64,000 nt of DNA from Planctomycetota bacterium. GTDB lineage: Bacteria; Planctomycetota; UBA8108; SXIK01. This document shows, piece after piece, positions 19,010 through 52,794 of the stretch (position 1 is its first letter; each line of letters starts with the position of its first letter). The position numbers and the translations under genes were made by a program. The stretch spans positions 5,344,001 through 5,408,000 of the forward strand of contig OZ244999.1 in assembly GCA_965223265.1 (NCBI GenBank). The letters are read 5' to 3'. The notes below the pieces were generated by a model. That model saw only the letters and a program-made list of their open reading frames with translations. It did no database searches and was not told where the DNA came from.

Positions 19010-20440
19010 ATGGCAACAGCGAAGGCCAAAAACAACTCGCGAAAGAAACGCGGCGACGGCGGCAAGGCAGCGCCGCGCGGTGGGCGCTCCAGCAGCGGGC
19101 TGCCGAGCGACGAAGAGCTCGAGGCAGAAGCGAAACAATTGGAAGCCTCGGGGACGAGCGGCGGCGAAAAGGAAGGTCTCCACATCAGCCAACTGCAGCG
19201 AATGACCGTGCCGGAGCTCCACGAGCTCGCCAAGGCGGAAGATGTGACGGAATACACCGGCCTAAAAAAGCAGGACCTGATCTTCAAGCTCCTCAAAGGC
19301 AGCGCGTCGAAAAACGGACTCATGTACGGTGAAGGCGTGCTTGAGGTTCTCCCGGACGGCTTTGGATTCTTGCGTTCGCCACGCTACAGCTATTACCCAT
19401 GTCCGGATGACATCTACGTGTCGCCGTCGCAAATCCGCCGCTTTGGTATGCACACCGGTGCGGTGATTTCGGGGCAGATTCGCCCGCCAAAGGAAAACGA
19501 GCGGTACTTCGCCTTGCTTCGCGTCGAAGCCATCAACTACGAGGAGCCAGAGAAACTCCACAGTAAGGCGAACTTTGACGACCTCACCCCGCTCTATCCG
19601 GAAGAGCGTCTCGTTCTGGAATGTGATGCGGCCAACTTCGAGACGAGAATCATCGATCTCGTCACCCCGATTGGCAAAGGGCAGCGCGGCTTGATCGTCG
19701 CACCACCGCGAACCGGCAAGACGATCTTGCTGCAAAAGATTGCTAATAGCATCACTCGCAACAATCCTGAGGTCGACTTGATCGTACTATTGATCGACGA
19801 GCGACCAGAAGAAGTGACCGACATGGAACGCTCGGTGAAGGGCGAAGTCATCAGCTCGACGTTCGACGAGCCGGCCGCCCGTCACGTCCAAGTCGCTGAA
19901 ATGGTGATCGAGAAGGCGAAGCGCATGATCGAGTATGGTCGTGACGTCGTCATCCTTCTTGATTCGATCACGCGTCTCGCACGCGCCTACAACACCGAAG
20001 TGCCGCACTCAGGCAGGATTCTCTCCGGTGGTGTGGACGCGAGCGCCCTTCAGAAACCAAAGCGCTTCTTTGGATCGGCTAGAAACATCGAAGAGGGCGG
20101 CAGCTTGACGATCATCGCAACGGCGCTTGTTGACACCGGCAGCCGCATGGACGAGGTGATCTTCGAGGAGTTCAAAGGAACCGGCAACATGGAGCTTCAT
20201 CTCGATCGTCGGCTCGCCGACAAACGCGTCTGGCCGGCCATCGATATCACCCGCTCCGGCACACGCAAAGAGGAGCTGCTACTCGACAGTGATGAGCAGC
20301 GTCGCATCTGGGTGCTCCGCAAGGTGCTGCACGACATGAACCCAGTGGAGGCGATGGAGCTGCTGACCACGAAGCTGAAGCAGCACCCAACGAATCCGGA
20401 GTTCTTGCTGTCGATGAACGCCGATCGCATCGTTTCCTAG
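19010..20440 (+). CDS. rho: Transcription termination factor Rho
   Basis: [68 protein letters not shown]. Confidence 0.99.
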
Positions 20441-42314: not shown

Positions 42315-42756
42315 GGCGAGAGCTCTGCAAGGACGTCGCCCTCGAGAACGTCTTGGTGCCTGACCGTAACGCCGCAAGCTCGACCATCTGCCATCTCGCG
42401 CCGGCCTGGCCCAGTTCGGGATTCCAAAGCCCGTGAGAGTTTTTCATCACCCCCGAGGAACGTTGTGGGGTCCAGAAGGCGCGGTCCCGCCTCTCGAGGA
42501 AAACCCCCGCCAGCCTCGCTCCTGCGCCACACTGGCGGCAAGATCGTGCCCGAGTCGCTTGTGGGTCTCGACGCCAGATGGCCGAACTCGAGCGGACTGC
42601 TTGACAGACCCTGGGTACGCACGCCATCCTCCTCAACACCACGGTAGTCGCCCGCGTTCAAGAGGCGTTCGGCACTCCAGTCTCGTCAACCTCCCTGCGG
42701 TAGGCGCCGCGAAGCGACTTCCCGGAGAGACTCACGATCGCAACGAAAGGATCACC

Positions 42757-44031
42757 ATGAAAATCCTCGTTCTCGGCTCGGGCGGCCGCGAACATGCGCT
42801 GGTGACGGCATTCGCTCGCTCGCCTCAAAAGCCGCAAGTTTTCTGCTCCCCTGGCAACGCGGGCATTCACGCCGAGGCCGACGCGCTCGAGGTCAGCCCG
42901 CACGGTGCTGTGGCGCACGGCGACCTCATCGAGGCGGCTCGTCGCGAACGGATCGACCTGACGATCGTTGGTCCCGAAGCTCCCCTAGCGGCCGGTATCG
43001 TCGACGACTTCGAATCGGCGGACCTGAGAATCTTCGGGCCGGATGCGCAGGCGGCCCAGCTCGAGGGCAGCAAATGCTTCACAAAGGAGTTCCTCGCGCG
43101 TCACGATATCCCGACCGCGGCGTTCGAGATCTTCGAGGACGCTCCGGCAGCATACGCCTACATCGAGAAACGCGGCACGCCGATCGTCGTCAAAGCGGAT
43201 GGCCTCGCCGCCGGCAAAGGGGTCGTGGTCGCTCAAGACATGGACGCGGCGTGTCAAGCCGTCGATTCCATGCTGGTCGAAGGCGACTTCGGTGACGCCG
43301 GCCGACGCGTCGTCATCGAGGACTGTCTCCGCGGCTCGGAAATTTCGCTGTTCGCGATTTGCGATGGCACCGACTACGTCCTGCTCGAGACCGCGCAGGA
43401 CTATAAGCCGATCTTCGACGGCGACCGTGGCCCGAACACCGGCGGCATGGGGACGTACTCTCCTTACTATGCCGTGCACGATCCAATCGTCGTCGAGGCG
43501 CGACGGCGCATCATCGAGCCCACGCTGGCAGGCATGCAGAAGGAAGGCCATCCGTTTCGCGGCATTCTGTACGCAGGGCTCATGCTCACCCCTTCAGGCC
43601 CACAGGTCATCGAGTTCAATGTCCGTTTCGGCGACCCAGAGGCACAGGTGATCCTGCCGCGGCTCCTGAGCGACCCGCTCGAGCTCTTCGAGCGGGCTGC
43701 CGTCGGCGAGCTCGCAGGATACGAGCCACGCTGGGATCCACGTCACAGCGTCTGCGTCATCGCGGCATCAGGCGGCTATCCAGGGAGCTACGCCAAGGGT
43801 CGCAAAATCACCGGCCTGGAGGCGATCAAAGATCCGCTGGTGAAGGTGTACCACGCGGGCACGGCGCGCGATCACGACGGCGACCTGATCACCAGCGGCG
43901 GACGCGTTCTCGGCGTCACGGCGCTCGGGGACGATCGTCAGGCCGCACGCGCTCGAGCATACGCTGCGATGGCGCACATTCAGTTCGACGGTGTGCAGTA
44001 TCGGCGCGACATTGCGAGCGGAGAGCGTTAG
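42757..44031 (+). CDS. purD: Phosphoribosylamine--glycine ligase
   Basis: MKILVLGSGGREHAL, GPEAPL, KADGLAAGKGV, PNTGGMG.YSP, EFNVRFGDPE, TSGGRVL. Confidence 0.98.
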   Translation: MKILVLGSGGREHALVTAFARSPQKPQVFCSPGNAGIHAEADALEVSPHGAVAHGDLIEAARRERIDLTIVGPEAPLAAGIVDDFESADLRIFGPDAQAAQLEGSKCFTKEFLARHDIPTAAFEIFEDAPAAYAYIEKRGTPIVVKADGLAAGKGVVVAQDMDAACQAVDSMLVEGDFGDAGRRVVIEDCLRGSEISLFAICDGTDYVLLETAQDYKPIFDGDRGPNTGGMGTYSPYYAVHDPIVVEARRRIIEPTLAGMQKEGHPFRGILYAGLMLTPSGPQVIEFNVRFGDPEAQVILPRLLSDPLELFERAAVGELAGYEPRWDPRHSVCVIAASGGYPGSYAKGRKITGLEAIKDPLVKVYHAGTARDHDGDLITSGGRVLGVTALGDDRQAARARAYAAMAHIQFDGVQYRRDIASGER

Positions 44032-44073
44032 GTCGCCAGACGTACGTTCTGAACCAGTGACGCATCACTCGAA

Positions 44074-44112
44074 CAGAAATGCGCGTAGACCTCTGGCGCG
44101 CGTTTCTGCTTT
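44074..44112. terminator. Hairpin between convergent purD and tRNA array (possibly bidirectional terminator)
   Basis: CAGAAATGCGCG-TAGACCTCTGG-CGCGCGTTTCTG. Confidence 0.55.
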
Positions 44113-44119
44113 AGAGGCG

Positions 44120-44191
44120 TGACCCCACCGGGAATCGAACCCGGTCCTCCAGGTTGAAAGCCTAGCGTCCTACACAGTAGACCATGGGGCC
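44120..44191 (-). tRNA. tRNA-Glu(TTC), no encoded CCA
   Basis: GGCCCCA...CTAGG-CT TTC AA-CCTGG...CCGGG-TTCGATT-CCCGG-TGGGGTC-A. Confidence 0.88.
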
Positions 44192-44195
44192 ACGG

Positions 44196-44271
44196 TGGTG
44201 ACCCCGGCGAGAGTCGAACTCGCGTCTCCGGATTGAGAGTCCGGTGTTCTGACCAACTAAACTACGGGGCC
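44196..44271 (-). tRNA. tRNA-Glu(CTC)
   Basis: GGCCCCG...CCGGA-CT CTC AA-TCCGG...GCGAG-TTCGACT-CTCGC-CGGGGTC-ACCA. Confidence 0.92.
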
Positions 44272-44312
44272 ACGGTGAAGTCGTGTGCGCTCGCGTAGTT
44301 GCTGGTGAAAAA

Positions 44313-44387
44313 TGGCGGCGGCGGCCGGAGTCGAACCTCCGTAGCTGGGCTTATGAGGCTCAGCAGGCAACCAACAGCCTCACCGCA
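44313..44387 (-). pseudogene. Degenerate tRNA-Met(CAT), initiator-like
   Basis: CT CAT AA loop, 1:72 mismatch, encoded CCA, but an A.C mismatch in the anticodon stem and two T-stem mismatches. Confidence 0.7.
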
Positions 44388-44484
44388 CCAGGGTAGAAAG
44401 CACCTACCACTCGAGAGCGCGCGTTCTGCGCTCCCGTTCATGAAACTGGAACTTGTGGAAGTGGTTCATGGCCACGGCTGAGGT

Positions 44485-44524
44485 TTGCGGTTTACGAGAC
44501 AGCAGCTCTGTGAGCTACGCAGGC
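44485..44524 (-). pseudogene. 5' remnant of tRNA-Thr(CGT)
   Basis: GCCTGCG-TA-GCTC-ACA-GAGC-T-GCTGT-CT CGT AA-ACCGC; D loop collapsed, T arm absent. Confidence 0.6.
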
Positions 44525-44536
44525 AAAGGAAAAGAG

Positions 44537-44613
44537 TGGTAGGGCCGGGTGGATTCGAACCACCAACAACCAGGCTCTCGACCTGGTGCCTCTGCCAGTT
44601 GGGCTACGACCCC
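44537..44613 (-). tRNA. tRNA-Leu(GAG), short variable loop, C at position 33
   Basis: GGGGTCG...CCAGG-TC GAG AG-CCTGG-TTGTT-GGTGG-TTCGAAT-CCACC-CGGCCCT-ACCA. Confidence 0.82.
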
Positions 44614-44623
44614 AGAGTGTTTC

Positions 44624-44701
44624 TGGTGGAGGTGGTGAGATTCGAACTCACACGTAACGAGATTCTAAATCTCGCGCCTCTGCCAGTTGGGCTACACCTC
44701 C
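44624..44701 (-). tRNA. tRNA-Leu(TAG), short variable loop
   Basis: GGAGGTG...CGAGA-TT TAG AA-TCTCG-TTACGT-GTGAG-TTCGAAT-CTCAC-CACCTCC-ACCA. Confidence 0.9.
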
Positions 44702-44798
44702 ACGTTACTGTTCGGCGCTTGGGCTCCGGATGAGCGGCGGGATGATTGCGTGCGTACGACTCCTTTCAAGAAGGGGAAATCGACTTTTTTCGAATGAG

Positions 44799-44864
44799 TA
44801 CCCGTGGAAGGATTCACCCGCGAGGTTTTAAGCCTCGCCGCTCTGCCAGTTGGCGCACACGGGT
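44799..44864 (-). pseudogene. tRNA-Leu(TAA) with deletion in the T arm
   Basis: Intact acceptor ACCCGTG/CACGGGT and CGAGG-CT TAA AA-CCTCG arm; 5' T-stem strand and TTC missing. Confidence 0.75.
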
Positions 44865-44873
44865 ACAAAAGCG

Positions 44874-44945
44874 GTGGAGACCGGGAATCGAACCTGACAC
44901 AGGAGGTTTGCGACAGCTCCTCTCCCCCTTGGCACATGGGCCCCC
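44874..44945 (-). pseudogene. Degenerate tRNA, probably Cys(GCA)
   Basis: TCAGG-TTCGATT-CCCGG T arm, GCAAA-CCTCC anticodon 3' side, disrupted acceptor and D arm. Confidence 0.55.
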
Positions 44946-44953
44946 AAGTGAGA

Positions 44954-45010
44954 GTGCCCGAGGCAAGAGTCGAACGTGCAACTAGCTGGGTTTAACGAGT
45001 CTGCTACGAG
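44954..45010 (-). pseudogene. 3' remnant of a tRNA (isotype uncertain, Leu-like)
   Basis: TTAAACCCAG-CTAGTT-GCACG-TTCGACT-CTTGC-CTCGGGC-A; 5' half lost. Confidence 0.5.
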
Positions 45011-45025
45011 CCCACACTGCTTCGA

Positions 45026-45117
45026 TGGCGGAAGGCCTGGGAATCGAACCCAGAGGACCGCACGCAGTCCCACGGTTTAGCAAACCGCTCCGGCTAACCA
45101 ATATCCGGCTACCTTCC
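45026..45117 (-). tRNA. tRNA-Ser(GCT)
   Basis: GGAAGGT...GCGGT-TT GCT AA-ACCGT, long variable arm, CTGGG-TTCGATT-CCCAG, GCCA end. Confidence 0.92.
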
Positions 45118-45119
45118 AA

Positions 45120-45213
45120 TGGAGGAAGGTAGAGGAGTCGAACCCCCGACGACACATGACACGCCGCCGCCCCGGTGTTCAAAACCGGTTCGCTACCACT
45201 AGCGATACCTTCC
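45120..45213 (-). tRNA. tRNA-Ser(TGA), atypical D arm, U73
   Basis: GGAAGGTA-TCGCTA-GTGG-TAGCGA-A-CCGGT-TT TGA AC-ACCGG, long variable arm, GGGGG-TTCGACT-CCTCT-ACCTTCC-TCCA. Confidence 0.85.
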
Positions 45214-45220
45214 TTTTTCC

Positions 45221-45296
45221 TGGTTCGCCCGAGAGGACTCGAACCTCTAACCTCAGCGTTCGTAGCGCTACGCTCTTCCAGTTGAGCTACGGGCGA
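45221..45296 (-). tRNA. tRNA-Arg(ACG)
   Basis: TCGCCCG...TAGCG-CT ACG AA-CGCTG...AGAGG-TTCGAGT-CCTCT-CGGGCGA-ACCA. Confidence 0.93.
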
Positions 45297-45305
45297 AGAA
45301 TTCTC

Positions 45306-45381
45306 TGGCTGGCCCGGTAGGGATCGAACCTACGACCTCCGGGTTCAAAGCCCAGCGCTCTTCCAGTTGAGCTACAGGCCA
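45306..45381 (-). tRNA. tRNA-Gln(TTG)
   Basis: TGGCCTG...CTGGG-CT TTG AA-CCCGG...GTAGG-TTCGATC-CCTAC-CGGGCCA-GCCA; U1-A72, G73. Confidence 0.92.
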
Positions 45382-45390
45382 GCAAATACT

Positions 45391-45466
45391 TGGCACGCCC
45401 GCGAGGAGTCGAACCTCGAACCGGCGGATTTGGAATCCGCTGCGCTACCAGTTGCGCCACGGACGC
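45391..45466 (-). tRNA. tRNA-Trp(CCA)
   Basis: GCGTCCG...GCGGA-TT CCA AA-TCCGC...CGAGG-TTCGACT-CCTCG-CGGGCGT-GCCA. Confidence 0.93.
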
Positions 45467-45479
45467 ATGCACGAGCAAA

Positions 45480-45491
45480 TTGTCAAAGAAC
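45480..45491 (-). promoter_or_regulatory. boxA-like Nus antitermination site
   Basis: Minus strand GTTCTTTGACAA, 13 nt upstream of tRNA-Trp; fits the rrn boxA pattern GYTCTTTRAMAA. Confidence 0.65.
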
Positions 45492-45557
45492 ACGTTTCCT
45501 TCCATCACGGCGTGAGCCGCTTCGTGAAAAAGAAGAGTCACGTCGGACTCGCAAGTT

Positions 45558-45639
45558 TGGCGCAGACGCGGGGAATCGGACCCCGAGCTGCGGGATAGAC
45601 AATCCACCAAGATGCCGTTGCACCTTGCACCACGCCTCC
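45558..45639 (-). pseudogene. Degenerate tRNA-Asp(GTC)
   Basis: GGA-TT GTC TA-TCC loop, GCCA end, but T loop TCCGATT, G.G mismatch in acceptor, distorted D arm. Confidence 0.7.
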
Positions 45640-45710
45640 ATAGGCGCTCGTGCGACGGTGAACTCTTCAGTAGAGTCGCGGGAGAGTGAAGGTCTCGTTC
45701 TCTGGGGTCC

Positions 45711-45869
45711 CTACGACCGCAGGGAGAGAAGAGACAGGCGCCGCCTATTCCAGGACGGACAGGCGCACTGCCAGATAGCGAGACTATCGTGGCGTTCCAA
45801 GACCATGGCCGCTCTTTGGTGGGCGGCTTCGCGTGAGTGCGAATTGAGGTTGGTCTTCGGCTTGGTCAT
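45711..45869 (-). CDS. Putative 52-aa leader peptide upstream of the tRNA array
   Basis: MTKPKTNLNSHSREAAHQRAAMVLERHDSLAIWQCACPSWNRRRLSLLSLRS*; below ORF-track cutoff; stop inside a long hairpin. Confidence 0.35.
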   Translation of the reverse strand: MTKPKTNLNSHSREAAHQRAAMVLERHDSLAIWQCACPSWNRRRLSLLSLRS

Positions 45870-45881
45870 GACTTAACTTAA

Positions 45882-46060
45882 CAGCCCGTTGAAAAAAGTC
45901 ATTCGGCCGAAGAAACTGGCCTCTTCACGCCCAGCTCGACCGCGTCAATACTCGCCATCAGAATCGAAAAAAGAGGGCCCGAAGATTGCCTCCGTTTGCC
46001 GCAGCCGATCTGGACGCGAAGAGACCAGTTTTCGGCTCGAAGCACTTTTTCAACAGGCTG
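45882..46060 (+). mobile_element. MITE copy 4 (best preserved, 179 bp)
   Basis: TIRs CAGCCCGTTGAAAAA / TTTTTCAACAGGCTG (14 of 15 match), TTAA on both flanks. Confidence 0.88.
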
Positions 46061-46062
46061 TT

Positions 46063-46113
46063 AATAGACGACGCTCGGGGGTCGTCTATTGCACATTTTT
46101 TGAAAAAAATTTC
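46063..46113 (-). promoter_or_regulatory. Candidate ECF-type promoter with palindrome and A/T tract
   Basis: Minus strand AAATTTTTTTCAAAAAATG-TGCAAT-N17-CGTCTA; perfect inverted repeat AATAGACGAC-N8-GTCGTCTATT. Confidence 0.45.
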
Positions 46114-46231
46114 TTGGGGTTTCTCTCGGGCACGACGCTGCGCGCTGTGGCGAGCCATTCCGTCTCGGGGCCAGCAAACACAGCGACCACGGACGGTGGA
46201 AGAAGACGCCAAAGCTGACGAAAGCCGCGTG

Positions 46232-47461
46232 TCAGTCCTTCGATTTCCCGCGTCGTTTCTTCTTCCCGCGCTTTTTCTTCTTGCCCTTCTTCTCGGCCTT
46301 GCCGTCCTTATCGGCTGTGGCCGCGGCCTTGCCGTCATCGCCCTCGTCTTTCTTCGCGTCACCCTTCTGGGCATCGCCGTCTGACGGTTTTGTCGCCGGC
46401 TTCTTTGCTGTATCCTCTTTTTTGGTCTCGGGGCAGGCCGACGCGAGGATCGCGGAGACAACCCGGTTCAGCGCCGCACGGTCGACGGGATCGGCGTAGC
46501 CGGCGTCAAATCCTTCGAGTTTCGCTTTCTCGCGTCTCCCATCGAACTTGAAGTCTTCTTCCTCGAGCGACTTCATGAAAGCCTCTTGGCGCTCGACGCA
46601 CGTCTTCGAAACCATGCGACCGAGTTTCAGCAGCTCAATGAACGCCTCCGACGTGTTGCGCAGCAACTGTTGACGATTCATCTGCAGCTTCAGAATGTCG
46701 TTTTGCACTTTGGCCTGCGAGGTCCGCCAGTCCAGGACTTTCCGACGCAGCTTGCGCAGGTCGACGTCGACTGCCTCTTCAGACTCTTCATCAGGCTCAA
46801 CCTCCGCCATGATCTTCGAAAAATCTTTGTAGTTGTTGATCAAGCGGTCGATGAACTTGCCGTAGACGTCGCACGCCTCCTTCACCAATTTGTCGAGTTC
46901 CTCGCGACTGCCGACAAGGAGGGGCGTGTCCCGAAATGTGAACGGCCATGGAGCGTCCTTAGTCTTGTACGCCTTTGAGATCTGACGCTTGACAGCGGCG
47001 TTCTGCTTTTTGGGGTCGAGCTCCACCTTGACGTAGTACGCGTCGATCTCCGGATCGATCGATGGATCAAGGTTGCCCCTGGGTGTCCACTCCAGCGTCA
47101 AGTTGCGCTTTTGGGCGCCGGCAACTTCGTATTCCTTCACACCACCGTCGACGAGCGCACCGCGGTTCACCAAATTGAAATCGATCTTCGCCCCAGCTGG
47201 CAGGCTCTTCGACAAGTGAAAGGTGATCTCGATCGTCGTCCGCCCTCGTCCGGTGCGCGCGATCTGCTTGACTCCCTGCAGATCGATCAGCGGCTCATAG
47301 CCGTCGTAGCTCAGCGCTTTCCGGTCCTTCTTTTTCTTGGCTTTCGCCTTCCCCTGACCTTCCGTTTGCGACGCGACGCCGAACATTAACAAACCGCACA
47401 GCGCCGCACAGACGAACCGTGAGCTCTGAGTCAGCATGGAATGAGACCTCCTCGCAGTCAC
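46232..47461 (-). CDS. Exported hypothetical protein, Lys-rich termini
   Basis: Signal-like FVCAALCGLLMFGVASQTEG; coupled (GTGA overlap) to the upstream giant pilin gene. Confidence 0.75.
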   Translation of the reverse strand: MTARRSHSMLTQSSRFVCAALCGLLMFGVASQTEGQGKAKAKKKKDRKALSYDGYEPLIDLQGVKQIARTGRGRTTIEITFHLSKSLPAGAKIDFNLVNRGALVDGGVKEYEVAGAQKRNLTLEWTPRGNLDPSIDPEIDAYYVKVELDPKKQNAAVKRQISKAYKTKDAPWPFTFRDTPLLVGSREELDKLVKEACDVYGKFIDRLINNYKDFSKIMAEVEPDEESEEAVDVDLRKLRRKVLDWRTSQAKVQNDILKLQMNRQQLLRNTSEAFIELLKLGRMVSKTCVERQEAFMKSLEEEDFKFDGRREKAKLEGFDAGYADPVDRAALNRVVSAILASACPETKKEDTAKKPATKPSDGDAQKGDAKKDEGDDGKAAATADKDGKAEKKGKKKKRGKKKRRGKSKD

Positions 47462-50400
47462 TCAACTTCTTCTTGCAAATGAATCTTAGGCGTCGGCAAA
47501 AAATACGTGAGTGTGACGTCGTCGATGACTGGCGTGGCGACGGAACCACCACTCGTGTTTCCCGTAACGCCTTTTGCGGCCTGGAATCGAAAACGGTAGC
47601 CGACTTTAACATGGTCACCCTGAACACCAGTCGCACGCCGTGCTGCCCGACGACCGGCGATGCGATTGACAGGTTCCTGCAGCTGCCACGGCTCGATGAA
47701 GCCGCCCGGGATCGTGCTGTTTCCGACCGGGAGATAGACGACTTCAGCCTGGATCTGCATATCGCTGCGTCGCAGCGGCTGAGGAATCTGCTGCGGCAAA
47801 GAATCCGTGAACATCGCCGGATAGTACGACGTCCAGTCGAACGATCGGAGCATGATCGAGTCAACGCTCGGCGGCAACGGCACGTCGAACACGTTCGCGT
47901 ATTCGCATGGACGGTTCGTGTAGTAGCCAGGCGACTGCGCCACAAGGTAGTTCTTCACACCCGGGAAGGCGCCGTCAAACACAATGAATTCGTCGATCGT
48001 GGCGTTCGCCATGAATCGCTTGACGTTGCGCTCAACCTCGACGATTCCGCCGCGCCCCTGACCAGCGCTCGTCGAGTTCGTGTACCACTTGAACAGGCCG
48101 TAGTTTGAGTCACCCTGCTCCCGGATAAACCCACCTATGTGGAGGCCATCTTTGGGTTGCCGCTCGTTCAGGCGCACCCAGGAGTTCGCCGAACCGATAT
48201 CGCCCTGCGCGTGAATCGGCCCGCCGCCGGCGCGGCTCTCCTGAAAGTCGACGTAGAGGCGCACCGAAAGATTCGGATTCTGATCGTCCCAGTCGATCGC
48301 GATGTGGTGCCACTCATGCGCCTTGAAGTGGCGAATCGGCACCATGATGTCGGTGCGCGAGATAATCTTCTGCGGATCGAGCAACTCGAGAATCGGGTTG
48401 CTCTCGTTGTCTGCGATCACCTGTGGGTAGAGCTGCGAGACGCCGTCGCCGCCTTCTCCAATCGAATGGAGAAATGCTTGGTGGTAGTACATGCGGACGA
48501 CGCGGAGCTGGCCGATCGAATTCTTGAAGATATAGAACTGAGAGCCTTCAGAGCCACTGAAGTCTGCACCGTTCTGACTGACTTCACGCACCACCTGGGT
48601 GGACGAGACCAGTCCGGAGAACACAGGGTCGTCGCCGTTGAACTCGAACTTGACCCAAAACCCAATGCCGCCGCGATAATAAGGCACGTTACCGAGCGTG
48701 TTCTGACCGCGGCTCCCAAGCCCCGAGGCGCCAACCTTGACCACACCGCTTTCCTCACGGCCAAGATCGATCCGCTGCCGTGCGGGCATCGACAGATGCC
48801 GGCTAGCGATGTGGCTGGTGCGCACGATCGACGAGTGCAGGCCGTCGGGGAAGACGTCAGTCCCCAGCACTTCCTTGTTGATCAGAGGATCTCGCGGGAT
48901 CGCCGCTTCATTGGTGTAGGCCTGATAGTTCAGCACCTCGGCGCGGCGATAGAACTTATCCATGCGGGCGCCAAAACGTGAGAAGGGGGCGTCAAAGAGG
49001 TCACGCAGCGCGTCGGTAAACTCCTCGGTGAAGAGGCTTGTGCTGCCGCCCTGCTTGACGCGGCGAAGACGGCTGAGGGACTGCGATGGACGAGAGTCGA
49101 AACCATTCGTCACCGTGATCGACGGGTGCGATGCACGATATGTCTGCGGCCGACTCAAATAGGCGCCTTCCATGCGGCGGCCGTCCAAAAGCCCTGCCAC
49201 CTCGATGCGCCCATCGCGCACGCTTCCCGCAGTCACCAGTTCTGTCAAAGCTTCCATCGGTTCTGGCCAGGTGACGACATTTTTGCGGTTGTTGACGCTG
49301 GAAAGCGCGCCGACACCCTGGAACGTCTTTTCGAAGTGGTACTGGTTCGTGTGCCGGAGGACTCCATACGTCTGCACGACCGTACGAACGCGGCGCTCGA
49401 ACGGACGTCGAAACGGCACCGGCATGCCAAGCTGTCCCCGCCCTCTCGACGAAGTCGTGGTCGAGCTCTGCGCCGTGCGATCGGAGATGGGCCCGATCTG
49501 TCCCAAGCTGGTGATTTCGTAGTACCCCATGGAGTCGAAAGCGAACTCCGTGGTGTTGCCTTTGAACAGATTGAAGTTGTCCTGCGCCCAGACCAAGTCG
49601 GACTTGTCCACCGGCACGTACACCGCAGCGTTTGGGTTGTAGCGATTGATGCGCGTGTTGGGATTGAAGTTCGCTTTGAGGACGCCTTTGACGAGCTCGT
49701 AGTACCATGCGTTCTGATCGTGAAACCCGATCCCCGCCTGGCGGTACGTGCCGCGCGTGCTGCCAACATCGGTCCCCTTGATCCAGAGGCGCCCGACGGG
49801 GCTTGTGGCGCCGCCCGACACCAAAGCGCGTTTGATCTGCTGGTTGTTCGGCTGGTCCGGGTCGATCACGAGAGCGTTGGTCGGCGATGGAAAAAAGCTC
49901 GTCTCCAGGAGATCGACGAAATCTTCGAATCCTTGACGCCCCTGGTCGTTCGTCCGCCAAGCCATGAACGGCCGGATCTTTCGCCGCACGATGATTTGCT
50001 CCGCCAGTCGCTTTGCATGCTGGTATTCCAGCCGCGGGCTGTAGACGAAAATCGCCCGCGGCAGCACGCTGCCAACCTCCTCCTGCGCGGTGAGGCGACG
50101 ACCTAGGATCTGCGCCCCGGCATCGACCTGCGGCGCCATTGTCGCGTTGATGCCAGCACCACCCCCGAGGAACGAGAAGGGAAAAACGCGCCGCCCCGCA
50201 AGTCCTTGCAGACAAGCAATCAGCACCTCTTCGGGTGCGGTGTTGAGGTTGACCGGATACCGCGGCTGTCGCTCCATGCGCGGCTGAGCCGACGCCGGCG
50301 GCTGAGACTGCTGGGCGCTGCTACCACCCAGCCCGCCCGTCGAACCGAGAAGCTCCGGCACCTCGTTGAGACCATCAAGCGGCCCGAACACGTCACTGTC

Positions 50401-51132
50401 CAGCCAGCCATAGCAGGTCACGAAGTCCTTGACGATTTCATAATTCTCATCGCCAATCAGCTGCCGCAGCTGCGTCTTCGACGTGAATTGACCGCCAGGA
50501 AGGCGACGACGCAGTCGCACGATGTCCGCGCCGCGAATCCGCTGCCCGCTCCGGTTCGGTCCTTCATAGAACGGGTTAGTGATCTTCCGGCCACCACGTT
50601 TGAGTCGCTCACTGCTATCGATCGCTTGGCCAAGGTTGTCGAGCATGCGAGCGAGCGTATCCTGACGACCGTTCAAATTGATCTGTGAGGCGCAGTCGAT
50701 CACCTTGGTGTTGATCCACTGCTCGACGCCCGAGCGGCGTGCGAACATCTCCCAGCGGCTGACGCGGCGGTTGTTCATATCGACACGGCCGTGCGCCATA
50801 GTGTCCTCATCGCGCAGACGATAAAGCCACGGATTGTCTGTGTAGACCGAGAAGCTGCGAAAGTTCTTCGCCCCCTGCAGTTCGGCGATCGCGCGGCTGA
50901 GTCCAGTTTCGAGCAGAAAGTCCATCTGCCGTGCTTCGAGGTAGTTGTCGGTAGCAGCTCGTTCCAGGCGCATGAGCTGTGCGAATGCCGTACCCAGAAC
51001 GGCCATAATCGTCAGCACGCCGAGCGCAATGATCAGCACCGCACCGCGCTCGCCGCGGTCAGAACTGCCAGAGCGGCACCGACCGTGTGAACACGGCAAC
51101 TGCGAGGAACGTTGAGAGATCCATCGCCTCAT
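47458..51132 (-). CDS. Giant GspK/PilX-like minor pilin with HhH motifs and LamG/ConA-like C-terminal domain
   Basis: RGAVLIIALGVLTIMAVLG (no Glu5), IDCASQINLN and VNLNTAPEEVL GspK motifs, GIGFWVK...WHHIAIDWD...TIDEF LamG motifs. Confidence 0.82.
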   Translation of the reverse strand: MRRWISQRSSQLPCSHGRCRSGSSDRGERGAVLIIALGVLTIMAVLGTAFAQLMRLERAATDNYLEARQMDFLLETGLSRAIAELQGAKNFRSFSVYTDNPWLYRLRDEDTMAHGRVDMNNRRVSRWEMFARRSGVEQWINTKVIDCASQINLNGRQDTLARMLDNLGQAIDSSERLKRGGRKITNPFYEGPNRSGQRIRGADIVRLRRRLPGGQFTSKTQLRQLIGDENYEIVKDFVTCYGWLDSDVFGPLDGLNEVPELLGSTGGLGGSSAQQSQPPASAQPRMERQPRYPVNLNTAPEEVLIACLQGLAGRRVFPFSFLGGGAGINATMAPQVDAGAQILGRRLTAQEEVGSVLPRAIFVYSPRLEYQHAKRLAEQIIVRRKIRPFMAWRTNDQGRQGFEDFVDLLETSFFPSPTNALVIDPDQPNNQQIKRALVSGGATSPVGRLWIKGTDVGSTRGTYRQAGIGFHDQNAWYYELVKGVLKANFNPNTRINRYNPNAAVYVPVDKSDLVWAQDNFNLFKGNTTEFAFDSMGYYEITSLGQIGPISDRTAQSSTTTSSRGRGQLGMPVPFRRPFERRVRTVVQTYGVLRHTNQYHFEKTFQGVGALSSVNNRKNVVTWPEPMEALTELVTAGSVRDGRIEVAGLLDGRRMEGAYLSRPQTYRASHPSITVTNGFDSRPSQSLSRLRRVKQGGSTSLFTEEFTDALRDLFDAPFSRFGARMDKFYRRAEVLNYQAYTNEAAIPRDPLINKEVLGTDVFPDGLHSSIVRTSHIASRHLSMPARQRIDLGREESGVVKVGASGLGSRGQNTLGNVPYYRGGIGFWVKFEFNGDDPVFSGLVSSTQVVREVSQNGADFSGSEGSQFYIFKNSIGQLRVVRMYYHQAFLHSIGEGGDGVSQLYPQVIADNESNPILELLDPQKIISRTDIMVPIRHFKAHEWHHIAIDWDDQNPNLSVRLYVDFQESRAGGGPIHAQGDIGSANSWVRLNERQPKDGLHIGGFIREQGDSNYGLFKWYTNSTSAGQGRGGIVEVERNVKRFMANATIDEFIVFDGAFPGVKNYLVAQSPGYYTNRPCEYANVFDVPLPPSVDSIMLRSFDWTSYYPAMFTDSLPQQIPQPLRRSDMQIQAEVVYLPVGNSTIPGGFIEPWQLQEPVNRIAGRRAARRATGVQGDHVKVGYRFRFQAAKGVTGNTSGGSVATPVIDDVTLTYFLPTPKIHLQEEVE

Positions 51133-51669: not shown

Positions 51670-52794
51670 TCAGTTAGACTCAGGCGAAGCCCCGCCTTCA
51701 CTCACGACGAGGCCGAGCTTGGTCCGCACCTCACGATCCAGTTTCTCCAGAAGTGGTGGGTTTTCGTCCAAAAACTGCACCGAACGGTCACGCCCTTGGC
51801 CGAGGCGAACCTCGCCGTAGGAATGCCACGTACCACTCCGCGCCACGACGTCGTTTTCGACCGCAAGGTCAAGCAGATCACCGATATACGACACGCCTTG
51901 GTTGAAAAGGATGTCGAACTCTGCCTGTCGAAACGGCGGTGCCACCTTGTTCTTGACGACTTTGACACGGGTCCGGTTACCACGCACGCGATCGCCCTCT
52001 TTGAGCGCGGCAATGCGCCGGATATCAAAACGCATGGAGGAGTAAAACTTGAGGGCTCGACCGCCGGTCGTGGTCTCAGGGCTACCAAACATCACACCGA
52101 TCTTTTCACGGATCTGGTTGATGAAAATCAGGCACGTCTGGGATTTGTTGACGATCGCGGTGAGCTTGCGCATGGCCTGCGACATGAGCCGAGCGTGCAA
52201 ACCGACATGCGAGTCACCGATCTCGCCTTCGAGCTCCGCACGCGGCACGAGAGCTGCAACCGAATCGACGACGACGACGCTAATGGCGTTTGAAGAGATG
52301 AGCATCTCGGCAATCTCAAGCGCCTGCTCTCCCGAGTCCGGCTGCGAGACGAGAAGCGTGTCGAGGTTCACCCCAAGCCGTTTCGCGTAAGCTGGGTCGA
52401 GAGCGTGCTCGGCATCGATGAACGCGGCGTTGCCCCCAGCGCGCTGGGCATTGGCAACGATGTGCAGAGTCAAAGTGGTCTTGCCGGAAGACTCCGGTCC
52501 GAAGATCTCAACGATGCGCCCCTGCGGCACACCACCGACGCCCGTCGCAACATCGAGAGACGGTGAACCGGTCGAAATGACCGGTACGTTCGCCTTGTAG
52601 TCAGCACCCAGGTACATGATCGAGCCCTGACCACAGCGCTTCTGGATCTGCCCCAAGGTGAACTCAAGAGCCTGGTTTTGCTGCTTGTCATCATCTGCAG
52701 CCCGGCCCTTTGTCGCCCGTGTGCCGTTGCTGCGGCTGCGGGACGTGGTCTCAGCCGACGCTCGTGAGCTGGTGGACGTTTTCATTTTTCCCAT
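51670..52794 (-). CDS. recA: Recombinase RecA
   Basis: [59 protein letters not shown]. Confidence 0.99.

Follow-up and report, generated by a model that had tools for sequence, protein, structure and literature searches.

A partly decayed, horizontally acquired tRNA array with an rRNA-type boxA in a planctomycete chromosome

What is a dense run of tRNA genes doing between purD and a conserved gene of a large planctomycete chromosome, and how might it be transcribed? tRNA arrays are known but poorly understood mobile DNA, and transcription and function are known for very few of them. The locus lies in a 64,000-nt stretch of contig OZ244999.1 (the window), part of a 9.18-Mb genome, and had been described in an initial annotation as an accessory tRNA array with its own multilayer control region. 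ARAGORN, the check which that annotation had suggested, was run and detected nine intact tRNA genes, all on the minus strand at 44119-45466 and in the order previously given. In array sense they are:

45391-45466, minus strand: tRNA-Trp(CCA), the first intact gene of the array; Rfam 62.5 bits
45306-45381, minus strand: tRNA-Gln(UUG); Rfam 66.5 bits
45221-45296, minus strand: tRNA-Arg(ACG); Rfam 64.3 bits
45120-45213, minus strand: tRNA-Ser(UGA), 94 nt; Rfam 31.9 bits
45026-45117, minus strand: tRNA-Ser(GCU), 92 nt; below the Rfam threshold
44624-44701, minus strand: tRNA-Leu(UAG), 78 nt, no long variable arm, A73; Rfam 58.7 bits
44537-44613, minus strand: tRNA-Leu(GAG), 77 nt, no long variable arm, A73; Rfam 50.1 bits
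44196-44271, minus strand: tRNA-Glu(CUC), 76 nt; Rfam 73.4 bits
44119-44191, minus strand: tRNA-Glu(UUC), 73 nt, the last gene of the array, CCA not encoded; Rfam 60.3 bits

The Rfam tRNA gathering score was reached by eight of these nine genes, the exception being tRNA-Ser(GCU), for which the only match was a sub-threshold one to the tRNA-Sec model (38.1 bits). All nine were found to fold as cloverleaves in which G-U is the sole type of stem mismatch, apart from one unpaired position adjoining the anticodon stem of tRNA-Ser(UGA). Both Ser tRNAs carry A instead of U8, the usual residue at position 8 of tRNAs. The nine genes occupy 1348 nt, a density of 6.7 per kb, and are separated by 2-12 nt between intact neighbours and by up to 324 nt where decayed genes intervene. 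The decayed genes are the following, each with its best local alignment score and the maximum of 30 shuffles; G005 and G009 denote two other genomes of the phylum that carry related arrays.

45558-45642, minus strand: pseudo-tRNA-Asp(GUC), with a short duplication within the D arm; 43 against 28, closest to the Asp genes in the G005 and G009 arrays
about 44952-45026, minus strand: tRNA remnant, detected by ARAGORN at -ps70; 41 against 26
44871-44948, minus strand: possible, marginal pseudo-tRNA-Cys(GCA), detected by ARAGORN only at -ps60; 31 against 29
44773-44866, minus strand: pseudo-tRNA-Leu(UAA), detected by ARAGORN at -ps80; 38 against 26
44455-44536, minus strand: tRNA-Thr-like remnant, detected by ARAGORN only at -ps60; 35 against 25
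44313-44387, minus strand: pseudo-tRNA-Met(CAU), detected by ARAGORN only at -ps80; 41 against 26, best match the Met gene of the G009 array

Thus, five of the six pseudogenes and remnants claimed earlier (Asp, the 45-kb remnant, Leu, Thr and Met) outscore their shuffles, and the pseudo-Cys gene is only marginal. That six genes have decayed speaks for selection having been relaxed over some of the array at least.

The neighbouring genes indicate how the array came to its present site. They are:

42433-44031, plus strand: purD, the right flank, identified by the Pfam domains GARS_N/A/C and by synteny
46232-47461, minus strand: a 409-aa gene without a Pfam family, the left flank, on the array's own strand

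In all five relatives, the 409-aa gene directly adjoins purD and no tRNA separates the two; no tRNA was found at any of the ten loci spanning this junction. The array is therefore an insertion foreign to the purD/409-aa locus, as the empty site in the relatives supports. No integrase (PF00589) and no RtcB (PF01139) match was found inside the 64,000-nt window, in agreement with the earlier statement that no integrase, phage or RNA-repair gene is adjacent, and no nuclease, defence, phage or homing endonuclease gene adjoins the array.

Does the array add anything to the tRNA repertoire of its host? A second, housekeeping copy of each of the nine anticodons was found elsewhere in the genome, so that the redundancy check proposed in the initial annotation left none of these genes as the only genomic copy. 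The array is accordingly accessory, adding supernumerary genes and no new anticodons. Its tRNAs are only 63-75% identical to the housekeeping tRNAs of the same anticodon, and its Leu tRNAs of 77-78 nt lack the long variable arm, whereas the housekeeping Leu tRNAs measure 84-89 nt; the tRNA bodies are indeed atypical, as had been noticed. These figures also bear on a native origin, by which host tRNA genes would have been duplicated locally and inherited vertically (an A-array). The Trp, Gln and Arg genes recur exactly every 85 nt, and the 85-nt units are 62-73% identical, as local duplication might leave them. However, such an origin is contradicted by the empty site in the five relatives and by the low identity to host tRNAs; the Leu tRNAs are of a structural class unlike the host's, the best relatives of the array genes are tRNAs from arrays at other loci in other families, and a native A-array is hardly credible.

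Those relatives define the family to which the array belongs. Related arrays in the phylum comprise 11-34 genes, and those of G005 and G009, with 19 and 17 tRNAs, stand at different loci; the G005 array starts (Asp, then Trp) and ends (Glu-UUC) as the present one does. tRNA-Leu(GAG) is 81% identical to its counterpart in the G005 array, with four compensatory pairs, and tRNA-Ser(GCU) is 82% identical to that of the G009 array. Across eight isoacceptor pairs between arrays, 108 of 174 stem pairs are the same, 21 show a one-sided change that keeps the pairing, 33 are compensatory, 10 are broken and 2 are gapped; that the stem changes are mostly compensatory shows past constraint, not present constraint. 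The signature of the short tRNA-Leu was found in 49 of 401 genomes of the phylum, belonging to 36 of 287 genera. At 79 of 84 viral matches (200 loci examined) it lay within a short tRNA-Leu with the same type of D arm, and many of these matches belonged to clusters with 10-38 tRNAs. Any one phage or plasmid record covers at most 13% of the array. The array tRNAs are not host copies but members of a family of arrays scattered over the phylum, resembling phage clusters even in the Leu tRNAs without a long variable arm.

A resemblance to phage clusters raises the possibility of a reserve against attack on tRNAs, in which divergent tRNAs with altered anticodon loops replace those cut by the anticodon nucleases of defence systems, toxins or competitors. 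Such a reserve has been proposed for phage and mycobacterial arrays. By reading of the sequences, seven of the nine anticodon loops differ from that of the housekeeping copy, and tRNA array units have been termed a putative anti-defence system in the available part of one report (PMC12803027). Against this, no nuclease, defence or phage gene lies beside the array and the retained set of isotypes follows no evident logic, which leaves a reserve of this kind improbable.

How would such an array be expressed? The initial annotation had answered with a stress-inducible backup operon, silent until translation is impaired, whose control stacks an alternative sigma factor, leader attenuation and Nus antitermination. 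The features that bear on this answer are:

46062-46091, plus strand: 11-bp palindrome with a T run after it; z -5.4 on the minus strand, terminator-like on the plus strand
45878-46064, no strand given: young copy of a MITE of about 186 bp with terminal inverted repeats
45643-45877, minus strand: leader of 235 nt holding a 52-codon ORF (45711-45869); fold z -3.05
45535-45550, minus strand: weak terminator-like hairpin with a T run, between pseudo-Asp and boxA
45476-45492, minus strand (array sense): boxA 17-mer TGTTCTTTGACAATTTG, 9 nt 5' of tRNA-Trp and identical to the 16S leader of the host genome
44742-44769, minus strand: sigma-70-like match TTGAAA-16-AATCAT, internal, before tRNA-Leu(UAG); not above chance
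44074-44108, plus strand: hairpin between the purD stop and the last tRNA, folding better on the purD strand

Many housekeeping tRNAs of this genome are preceded by TTGACA-N16/17-TAnAnT. In 43900-46400, one sigma-70-like site was found, the internal one, and none upstream of the array, against 0.4 +/- 0.6 in shuffles. The palindrome proposed to accompany a promoter is real. The candidate promoter itself and its alternative sigma factor are unsupported: nothing recognisable was found at that place, and the scan did not exceed chance. The leader has no tRNA similarity and no relatives were found for it. The same 2.2 kb of non-coding DNA contain 23 ORFs of 40 aa or longer, that of the leader among them, and five terminator-like sites were found where 3.0 +/- 1.8 are expected; attenuation through a leader ORF and hairpin is therefore unsupported, both elements being at chance level. 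The region is structured, but neither a conserved regulatory ORF nor alternative hairpins, by which leader-peptide attenuators are recognised, were found in it. The surroundings of the hairpin at 45535-45550 show no folding advantage over shuffles (z -0.22), and no promoter fits between this hairpin and boxA; with a terminator-like hairpin just upstream, polymerase may seldom reach boxA. The MITE was found at 309 distinct genomic loci, 214 of them with at least 150 nt aligned, and contains no ORF. In length, terminal inverted repeats and copy number it is like other MITEs, and it lies next to the array without belonging to it; the element thus stands, whereas its supposed role as a control layer falls with its being a recent copy of a genome-wide repeat. 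The hairpin proposed to end the array after Glu likewise fails on the array strand (z -0.93), the better fold being on the purD strand (z -2.6).

The boxA, in contrast to the two unsupported layers, was confirmed as a motif, letter for letter the 17-mer of the genome's 16S leader. The 17-mer occurs twice in 9.18 Mb, in the 16S leader and in the array, where 1.5e-4 occurrences are expected, and its 13-mer likewise occurs exactly twice, at the same two places. When the rrn leader is compared with the 2.2-kb gap, this is the longest exact match, at 17; in 1000 shuffles the longest reached 15. The other six genomic copies of the 11-mer core lie under open frames of at least 180 aa and are missing the flanks. 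The site agrees with the published consensus GYTCTTTAANA in 10 of 11 letters and with the host and clade rrn boxA in 17 of 17, and a leader boxA with the same TTTG tail was found at 15 of 19 relatives' 16S loci. Its distance to tRNA-Trp is too short for a -35 element. NusB domain and Rho proteins are both encoded by the genome, and windows with C exceeding G occur in the decayed spacers downstream of boxA. No boxB, boxC or promoter was identified with the array boxA.

Is a boxA common among such arrays? The clade core G[CT]TCTTTGA[CA]A was found four times in sense and never in antisense orientation among 20 tRNA clusters from the phylum, which total 39,089 nt. Three of the four occurrences (G000, G054 and G316) stand 25-105 nt ahead of the first tRNA. 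The boxA is not a defining part of the array family, because the contigs of the closest related arrays (G005 and G009) carry none and because none was found within 700 nt in seven of the 11 array leaders checked, with up to two mismatches allowed. Among 65 mostly viral arrays, six of 13 sense-strand boxA matches contain TTGACA and a good, correctly spaced -10 accompanies at least one, so that some of the matches may be promoters. It is a tentative proposition, with less than an even chance, that mobile tRNA arrays, chromosomal and phage-borne, recurrently place an rRNA-type boxA at their head and borrow host Nus antitermination to finish a long, untranslated, Rho-exposed transcript. If true, rRNA antitermination would thereby be connected with the supply of tRNAs by horizontal acquisition. 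No paper pairing rRNA-type boxA antitermination with mobile tRNA arrays was found in the literature searched.

Because the alternative-sigma and attenuation layers are unsupported, putative Nus antitermination is the only one of the three proposed control layers with any evidence, all of it from sequence. The stacked backup operon can still point to the redundancy of the array, to a real boxA, to the missing housekeeping-type promoter, which fits conditional expression, and to the Anabaena L-array, which, in the available part of its description, is induced by translational stress (PMC8421152). However, no promoter motif of any kind was identified, the leader has the shortcomings given above, the MITE is a genome-wide repeat, and neither RtcB nor a homing endonuclease is nearby. 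Moreover, the same source explains control in Anabaena not by attenuation but by a probable repressor and direct repeats that overlie the -10 box (PMC8421152). Overall, a backup operon with these three layers is decidedly unlikely, more so than the attack reserve.

A stronger contender, although still on the unlikely side, is an inert relic that arrived horizontally, is not usefully expressed and is eroding, its intact nine genes simply not yet struck and its boxA a leftover of the donor or a small chance conversion. About six of 15 genes are decayed, no promoter is recognisable, a MITE has inserted upstream and a terminator-like hairpin stands ahead of boxA; L-arrays are also described, in the part of the source available, as mostly cryptic, with counter-selection expected (PMC8421152). 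Yet nine survivors without stem mismatch beside wrecked neighbours are uneven for neutral decay, and a boxA matching the present host's rrn motif, tail included, exactly heads the intact part. The mostly compensatory stem changes count against a relic only for the past. Such selective erosion, nine structurally intact genes beside about six wrecks, amounts to a natural experiment on which spare tRNAs cells keep.

The array is horizontally acquired, of the L-array kind and partly decayed; the reading favoured here, given about an even chance, adds that its host-type boxA acts in Nus antitermination and that expression is little or conditional. Polymerase entering from upstream would transcribe boxA, on which NusB/S10 and other Nus factors would load as at rRNA operons, and the modified polymerase would withstand Rho across the following 1.35 kb of untranslated RNA. 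Because about 630 nt of this RNA are decayed, C-rich spacer, antitermination would allow the distal Leu and Glu tRNAs to be made, and the tRNAs would be released by RNase P and 3' processing. Upstream of the array there is no promoter of the kind that the host normally uses, so that expression is probably low, conditional or the result of read-through from the upstream 409-aa gene on the same strand. The MITE would be a later, unrelated insertion. A foreign array bearing the host's rRNA antitermination signal suggests how a kilobase-long untranslated operon might escape Rho.

What sets this array apart from known systems? Same-direction operon-like spacing, a horizontal and patchy spread with absence from close relatives, and supernumerary genes, three of the marks of L-arrays (Santamaria-Gomez et al., 2021), are present here; a further mark is a length greater than gene accretion predicts for the phylum. 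As far as the available text of PMC8421152 goes, the array is like L-arrays such as the trn operon of Anabaena sp. PCC 7120 in being tightly packed on one strand, in supplying redundant isodecoders and not new anticodons, in a patchy distribution implying horizontal transfer, in lacking a strong constitutive promoter and in its interspersed pseudogenes; Planctomycetes are among the phyla listed there. It differs in having nine intact genes, against up to 43, and, from the Anabaena array, in its chromosomal position between core genes, where neither a homing endonuclease nor RtcB is close by and no operator of direct repeats was seen. tRNA array units are defined, in the accessible portion of Tran et al. 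(2015; PMC4758250), by at least 20 tRNA genes at a density of at least 2 per kb, and are reported there in a few Planctomycetes; the present array shares their redundant isoacceptors and, at 6.7 per kb, exceeds that density, but counts nine intact genes, or about 15 with the wrecks. Generic tRNA bodies and short tRNA-Leu are shared with phage clusters and with mycobacterial and plasmid arrays, as these are described in the sections available (PMC5966550; PMC12803027). Some viral tRNA clusters have boxA-like motifs 17-24 nt ahead of their tRNAs, but unlike in phage clusters, no phage genes lie beside the present array. The available text of PMC8421152 makes no mention of boxA. As in rRNA-operon leaders, so far as their available descriptions extend (PMC5725501; PMC4807359), the boxA here is in sense orientation and is followed by a long, structured RNA that is not translated, with the difference that this RNA holds foreign tRNAs and not rRNA. 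Aside from boxA, the array is unremarkable, a degraded representative of a class already catalogued; its possibly new feature, judged from the DNA, is an rRNA-type boxA.

ARAGORN calls ten tRNA genes in the window. Nine are arranged in tandem on the minus strand at 44119-45466, in the order Trp, Gln, Arg, Ser, Ser, Leu, Leu, Glu and Glu that the initial annotation, made without database searches, had already read. Eight reach the gathering score of the Rfam tRNA family; the ninth, Ser(gct), was detected only below threshold, through the tRNA-Sec model, and a pattern for this unusual tRNA found no match among viral contigs. All nine form a cloverleaf, with stem pairs that are all Watson-Crick or G-U except in Ser(tga), which has a single unpaired position next to the anticodon stem. 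Six decayed genes had also been claimed, in stretches that ARAGORN picks up at lowered thresholds only. Each stretch was aligned to 100 tRNAs (from the array's own genome, G000, and three related arrays), and its best score was compared with the maximum of 30 shuffles.

Decayed tRNA genes of the array (best alignment score and shuffle maximum)
Pseudo-Asp, minus strand: 43, shuffle maximum 28
Remnant, 44952-45025, minus strand: 41, shuffle maximum 26
Pseudo-Leu(taa), minus strand: 38, shuffle maximum 26
Thr remnant, minus strand: 35, shuffle maximum 25
Pseudo-Met, minus strand: 41, shuffle maximum 26
Pseudo-Cys, minus strand: 31, shuffle maximum 29 (marginal)

Five of the six were thus recovered above all shuffles, and pseudo-Cys only marginally so. 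Similarity to tRNA did not exceed that of shuffles in the leader (45643-45877) or in the spacers at 44702-44789, 44390-44454, 44272-44309 and 45467-45557, and an Rfam search of 43900-46400 with E up to 10 returned tRNAs only, with no riboswitch, leader or further RNA family. Judged by ARAGORN, Rfam and the shuffle tests, the array as first described is borne out for the most part.

The window sits in one 9.18-Mb contig (G+C 60.8%), in which ARAGORN finds 60 tRNAs and one tmRNA. All nine anticodons of the array recur in a further tRNA gene outside it in this contig. The array tRNAs are just 63-75% identical to the housekeeping tRNAs of the same anticodon, and are therefore no recent duplicates. 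The gene purD (42433-44031) adjoins a homologue of the 409-aa gene (46232-47461) in all five relatives compared, three of the same family and two of the same order, and no tRNA was found at the junction in any of ten loci spanning it. In G000 this junction measures 2.2 kb and holds the array, which is thus an insertion. A native array, a reading to which the tRNA-free junctions are opposed, is scarcely credible.

Next to purD, the 409-aa gene is kept across the order; its product, which has a Lys-rich tail, and a 1224-aa protein are encoded on the minus strand at 46232-51132, both without a Pfam family. Elsewhere in G000, two tRNA-Cys(gca) calls (G000:C1:5637533-5637604 and 5645785-5645861) share an identical 3' half, and the first, without a proper 5' part, looks like a partial duplicate of the sort that integration leaves behind. 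Two further ARAGORN calls, at 1384907 (Thr, 92 nt) and 5678809 (Arg, 85 nt), are apparent false positives.

Kindred arrays were found in two other genomes, G005 (19 tRNAs) and G009 (17 tRNAs), both off the purD-bearing contigs. The G005 array starts with Asp, a gap and Trp and ends with Glu(ttc), the same pattern as in G000, and its Asp gene is the best match of the G000 pseudo-Asp; its flanks are ordinary genes (a HAD hydrolase, a PLP enzyme and cytochrome c). Within it, ARAGORN calls a tRNA-Pyl(cta) (L011 5271-5346) that is paralogous to the tRNA-Gly(tcc) next to it. Judged from the stem, the loop may present UCU instead, and the gene would then be a Gly-like body with an Arg anticodon.

Eight isoacceptor pairs, comprising 174 stem pairs, were compared between the G000 array and the G005 and G009 arrays. 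Pairing is kept at 21 pairs with a change on one side and at 33 with changes on both, and 108 pairs are unchanged; 10 are broken in the partner array (6 of them in a single poorly aligned isoacceptor pair) and 2 fall in gaps. The array family has therefore been under cloverleaf constraint during its evolution, which demonstrates past function but not present function in G000.

No record of INPHARED (phage) or PLSDB (plasmid) covers more than 13% of the array. The reported lack of an adjacent integrase or RNA-repair gene was confirmed, with zero integrase or RtcB matches within the window. An anti-nuclease reserve, in which the array tRNAs would replace cleaved housekeeping tRNAs, is distinctly improbable. 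G000 has three RtcB paralogues and 32 integrase-domain matches, some as identical multi-copy sets, all distant from the array.

Both array tRNA-Leu genes are 77-78 nt long and are without the long variable arm; housekeeping tRNA-Leu measures 84-89 nt. Among 200 loci, 115 of 123 matches to the D-arm signature of these genes on genome contigs, and 79 of 84 on viral contigs, fall within a tRNA-Leu of less than 80 nt; clusters of 10-38 tRNAs make up many of the viral loci. The signature occurs in 49 of 401 sampled genomes of the phylum (reversed control pattern, 2), and 30 loci read for it included 9 arrays (5-21 tRNAs) and 18 single genes. This wide distribution, viral tRNA clusters included, ties the array to a phage-like tRNA gene pool. 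The accessible part of a review (PMC9976931) describes a long arm in tRNA-Leu of all organisms except animal mitochondria, which makes the short form noteworthy. The same part names A73 and D/T-loop tertiary pairs, and not the variable arm, as crucial to leucine identity in E. coli, and charging of the short array tRNA-Leu is therefore plausible. More generally, tRNA-Leu of this short form (73-78 nt, A73; 44537-44701 in the window, L024-L314 among the loci read) is frequent in phage tRNA clusters, and in two phyla it is frequent both in arrays and as single genes. In two genomes, G136 (L320 2884-2956) and G041 (L321 2797-2869), the sole match of the Leu(taa) D-arm and anticodon-loop pattern is a short gene, which may thus be their only tRNA-Leu(UAA).

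The initial annotation had proposed a stress-inducible operon controlled by an alternative sigma factor, attenuation and Nus antitermination, with a MITE in the control region. The MITE (45878-46064) is a real element, about 186 bp long and bounded by terminal inverted repeats, with 309 loci in G000, but as a genome-wide repeat beside the array it does not qualify as a layer of control. The copy is young, with 98% identity to several others; of all copies, 214 can be aligned over 150 nt or more (median identity 82%), and 8 that reach 95% identity or more indicate recent activity. The stretch is present, without differences, in four sequencing runs of one study as flat-depth contigs broken at the MITE; these runs resemble DNA and may be the source assembly. 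No RNA run was listed among those carrying the stretch.

Many housekeeping tRNA genes of G000 carry TTGACA-N16/17-TAnAnT 11-36 nt upstream. The 2.2-kb gap holds a single promoter-like site reaching 8/12 (shuffles, 0.4 +/- 0.6), internal and ahead of Leu(tag), and an alternative-sigma promoter found no support. Nor did attenuation: the gap contains 23 ORFs of 40 aa or more, most of them overlapping tRNA genes, and the leader ORF (45711-45869, 52 residues), whose DNA has no relatives in 40 genomes, is just one of these. The 235-nt leader between MITE and pseudo-Asp (45643-45877) folds better than shuffles (z -3.05), with no tRNA derivation and no relatives. A strong palindrome (46062-46091) is terminator-like on the plus strand and the hairpin 3' of Glu(ttc) is more stable when read on the strand of purD; both may come from purD or from the pre-insertion junction.

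The third layer fared differently. The genome has just two copies of the 13-mer GTTCTTTGACAAT, one 252 nt upstream of the 5' end of the 16S gene and the other 9 nt before tRNA-Trp, and the stretch common to rrn leader and array is a 17-mer (expected occurrences from base composition, 1.5e-4), so the claimed boxA is identical to the 16S-leader motif of G000 itself. With its TTTG tail, the motif lies 143-393 nt ahead of the 16S gene in 15 of 19 loci of relatives and is thus the rrn boxA of the clade. It agrees at 10 of 11 positions with GYTCTTTAANA, a gamma-proteobacterial consensus in the part of PMC5725501 consulted. Six further copies of the 11-mer core, all without the flanks, fall within open frames that span 180 aa or more (260 aa or more in five cases). 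A transferred fragment of the rrn leader was rejected because the likeness ends at the 17-mer; a -35 element was also rejected, since TTGACA ends 18 nt before tRNA-Trp and a -10 box is absent. Of the three proposed layers, boxA alone is thus supported, at the level of sequence, and the full model is very unlikely. G000 encodes NusB-domain genes and rho; the window that contains the array also contains rho (about 19331-19552) and recA (51670-52794).

The clade core was counted in 20 tRNA clusters of at least three genes each, drawn from 18 loci in the phylum and totalling 39,089 nt; it has four sense-strand occurrences and no antisense one.

Sense-strand boxA cores in tRNA clusters of the phylum
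G000 array, sense: 25 nt upstream of the first intact tRNA
G054 (L322), sense: about 70 nt upstream of tRNA-Asp, which heads a series of 21 tRNAs
G316 (L324), sense: about 105 nt upstream of the first tRNA (31 in all)
G021 (L013 3795-3805), sense: between Leu(gag) and Tyr

No -10 box follows the core at the three sites outside G000. No boxA was found within 700 nt in 7 of 11 array leaders checked, those of the closest relatives G005 and G009 included, which counts against a general rule. A wider set of 65 mostly viral arrays gave 13 sense and 0 antisense matches to the boxA consensus (mean of 300 column permutations, 1.5; 1 of 300 reaching 13). This count is a lead only, because the set was selected through the short-Leu motif, two loci (L205 and L248) resemble one contig counted twice, and six of the 13 matches contain TTGACA, at least one being promoter-like; some of these sites may be promoters. 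A viral pattern of boxA plus the 5' part of a tRNA matched four contigs, three of them distinct, an excess over chance that is not clear by rough estimate. At viral loci L315-L318, the core GYTCTTTGACA is again in sense orientation, at the array head or close to it, 24 nt before the first tRNA in a 31-tRNA viral cluster.

At the level of sequence comparison, the array is established as foreign, redundant and partly decayed, with a host-identical boxA heading its intact part. The best explanation, held with even confidence, is a horizontally acquired, partly decayed array of the L-array type, in which the host-identical boxA would direct Nus antitermination. Polymerase entering from upstream would transcribe boxA; as no promoter belonging to the array was recognised, the simplest source would be read-through from the same-strand 409-aa gene. 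Nus factors would modify the polymerase at boxA, as at rrn, and it would then withstand Rho over 1.35 kb of untranslated RNA, about 630 nt of which lies outside intact tRNA. In E. coli rrn, boxA by itself is able to confer resistance to Rho-dependent termination. Decayed spacers of the transcript 3' of boxA contain C>G windows. The missing promoter and a weak terminator-like hairpin immediately 5' of boxA are weaknesses of the antitermination proposal. An inert relic, a state that the decayed genes would suit and the host-identical boxA would not, is rather unlikely.

The literature searched yielded no report that pairs an rrn-type boxA with tRNA arrays, only papers on rrn or Nus factors and one irrelevant match, the name of a PCR primer; subscription journals were mostly uncovered, so novelty is unproven. 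The boxA survey of PMC5725501, in the part available, left non-coding RNAs out of consideration. Arrays in Planctomycetes are listed in the consulted parts of two surveys, PMC8421152 and PMC4758250. As far as these parts describe them, the G000 array is below the 20-gene threshold for an array unit of Tran et al. (PMC4758250), and resembles the L-arrays of PMC8421152 in orientation, spacing, redundancy and patchy distribution. As an array, the G000 locus belongs to a known kind, in degraded form.
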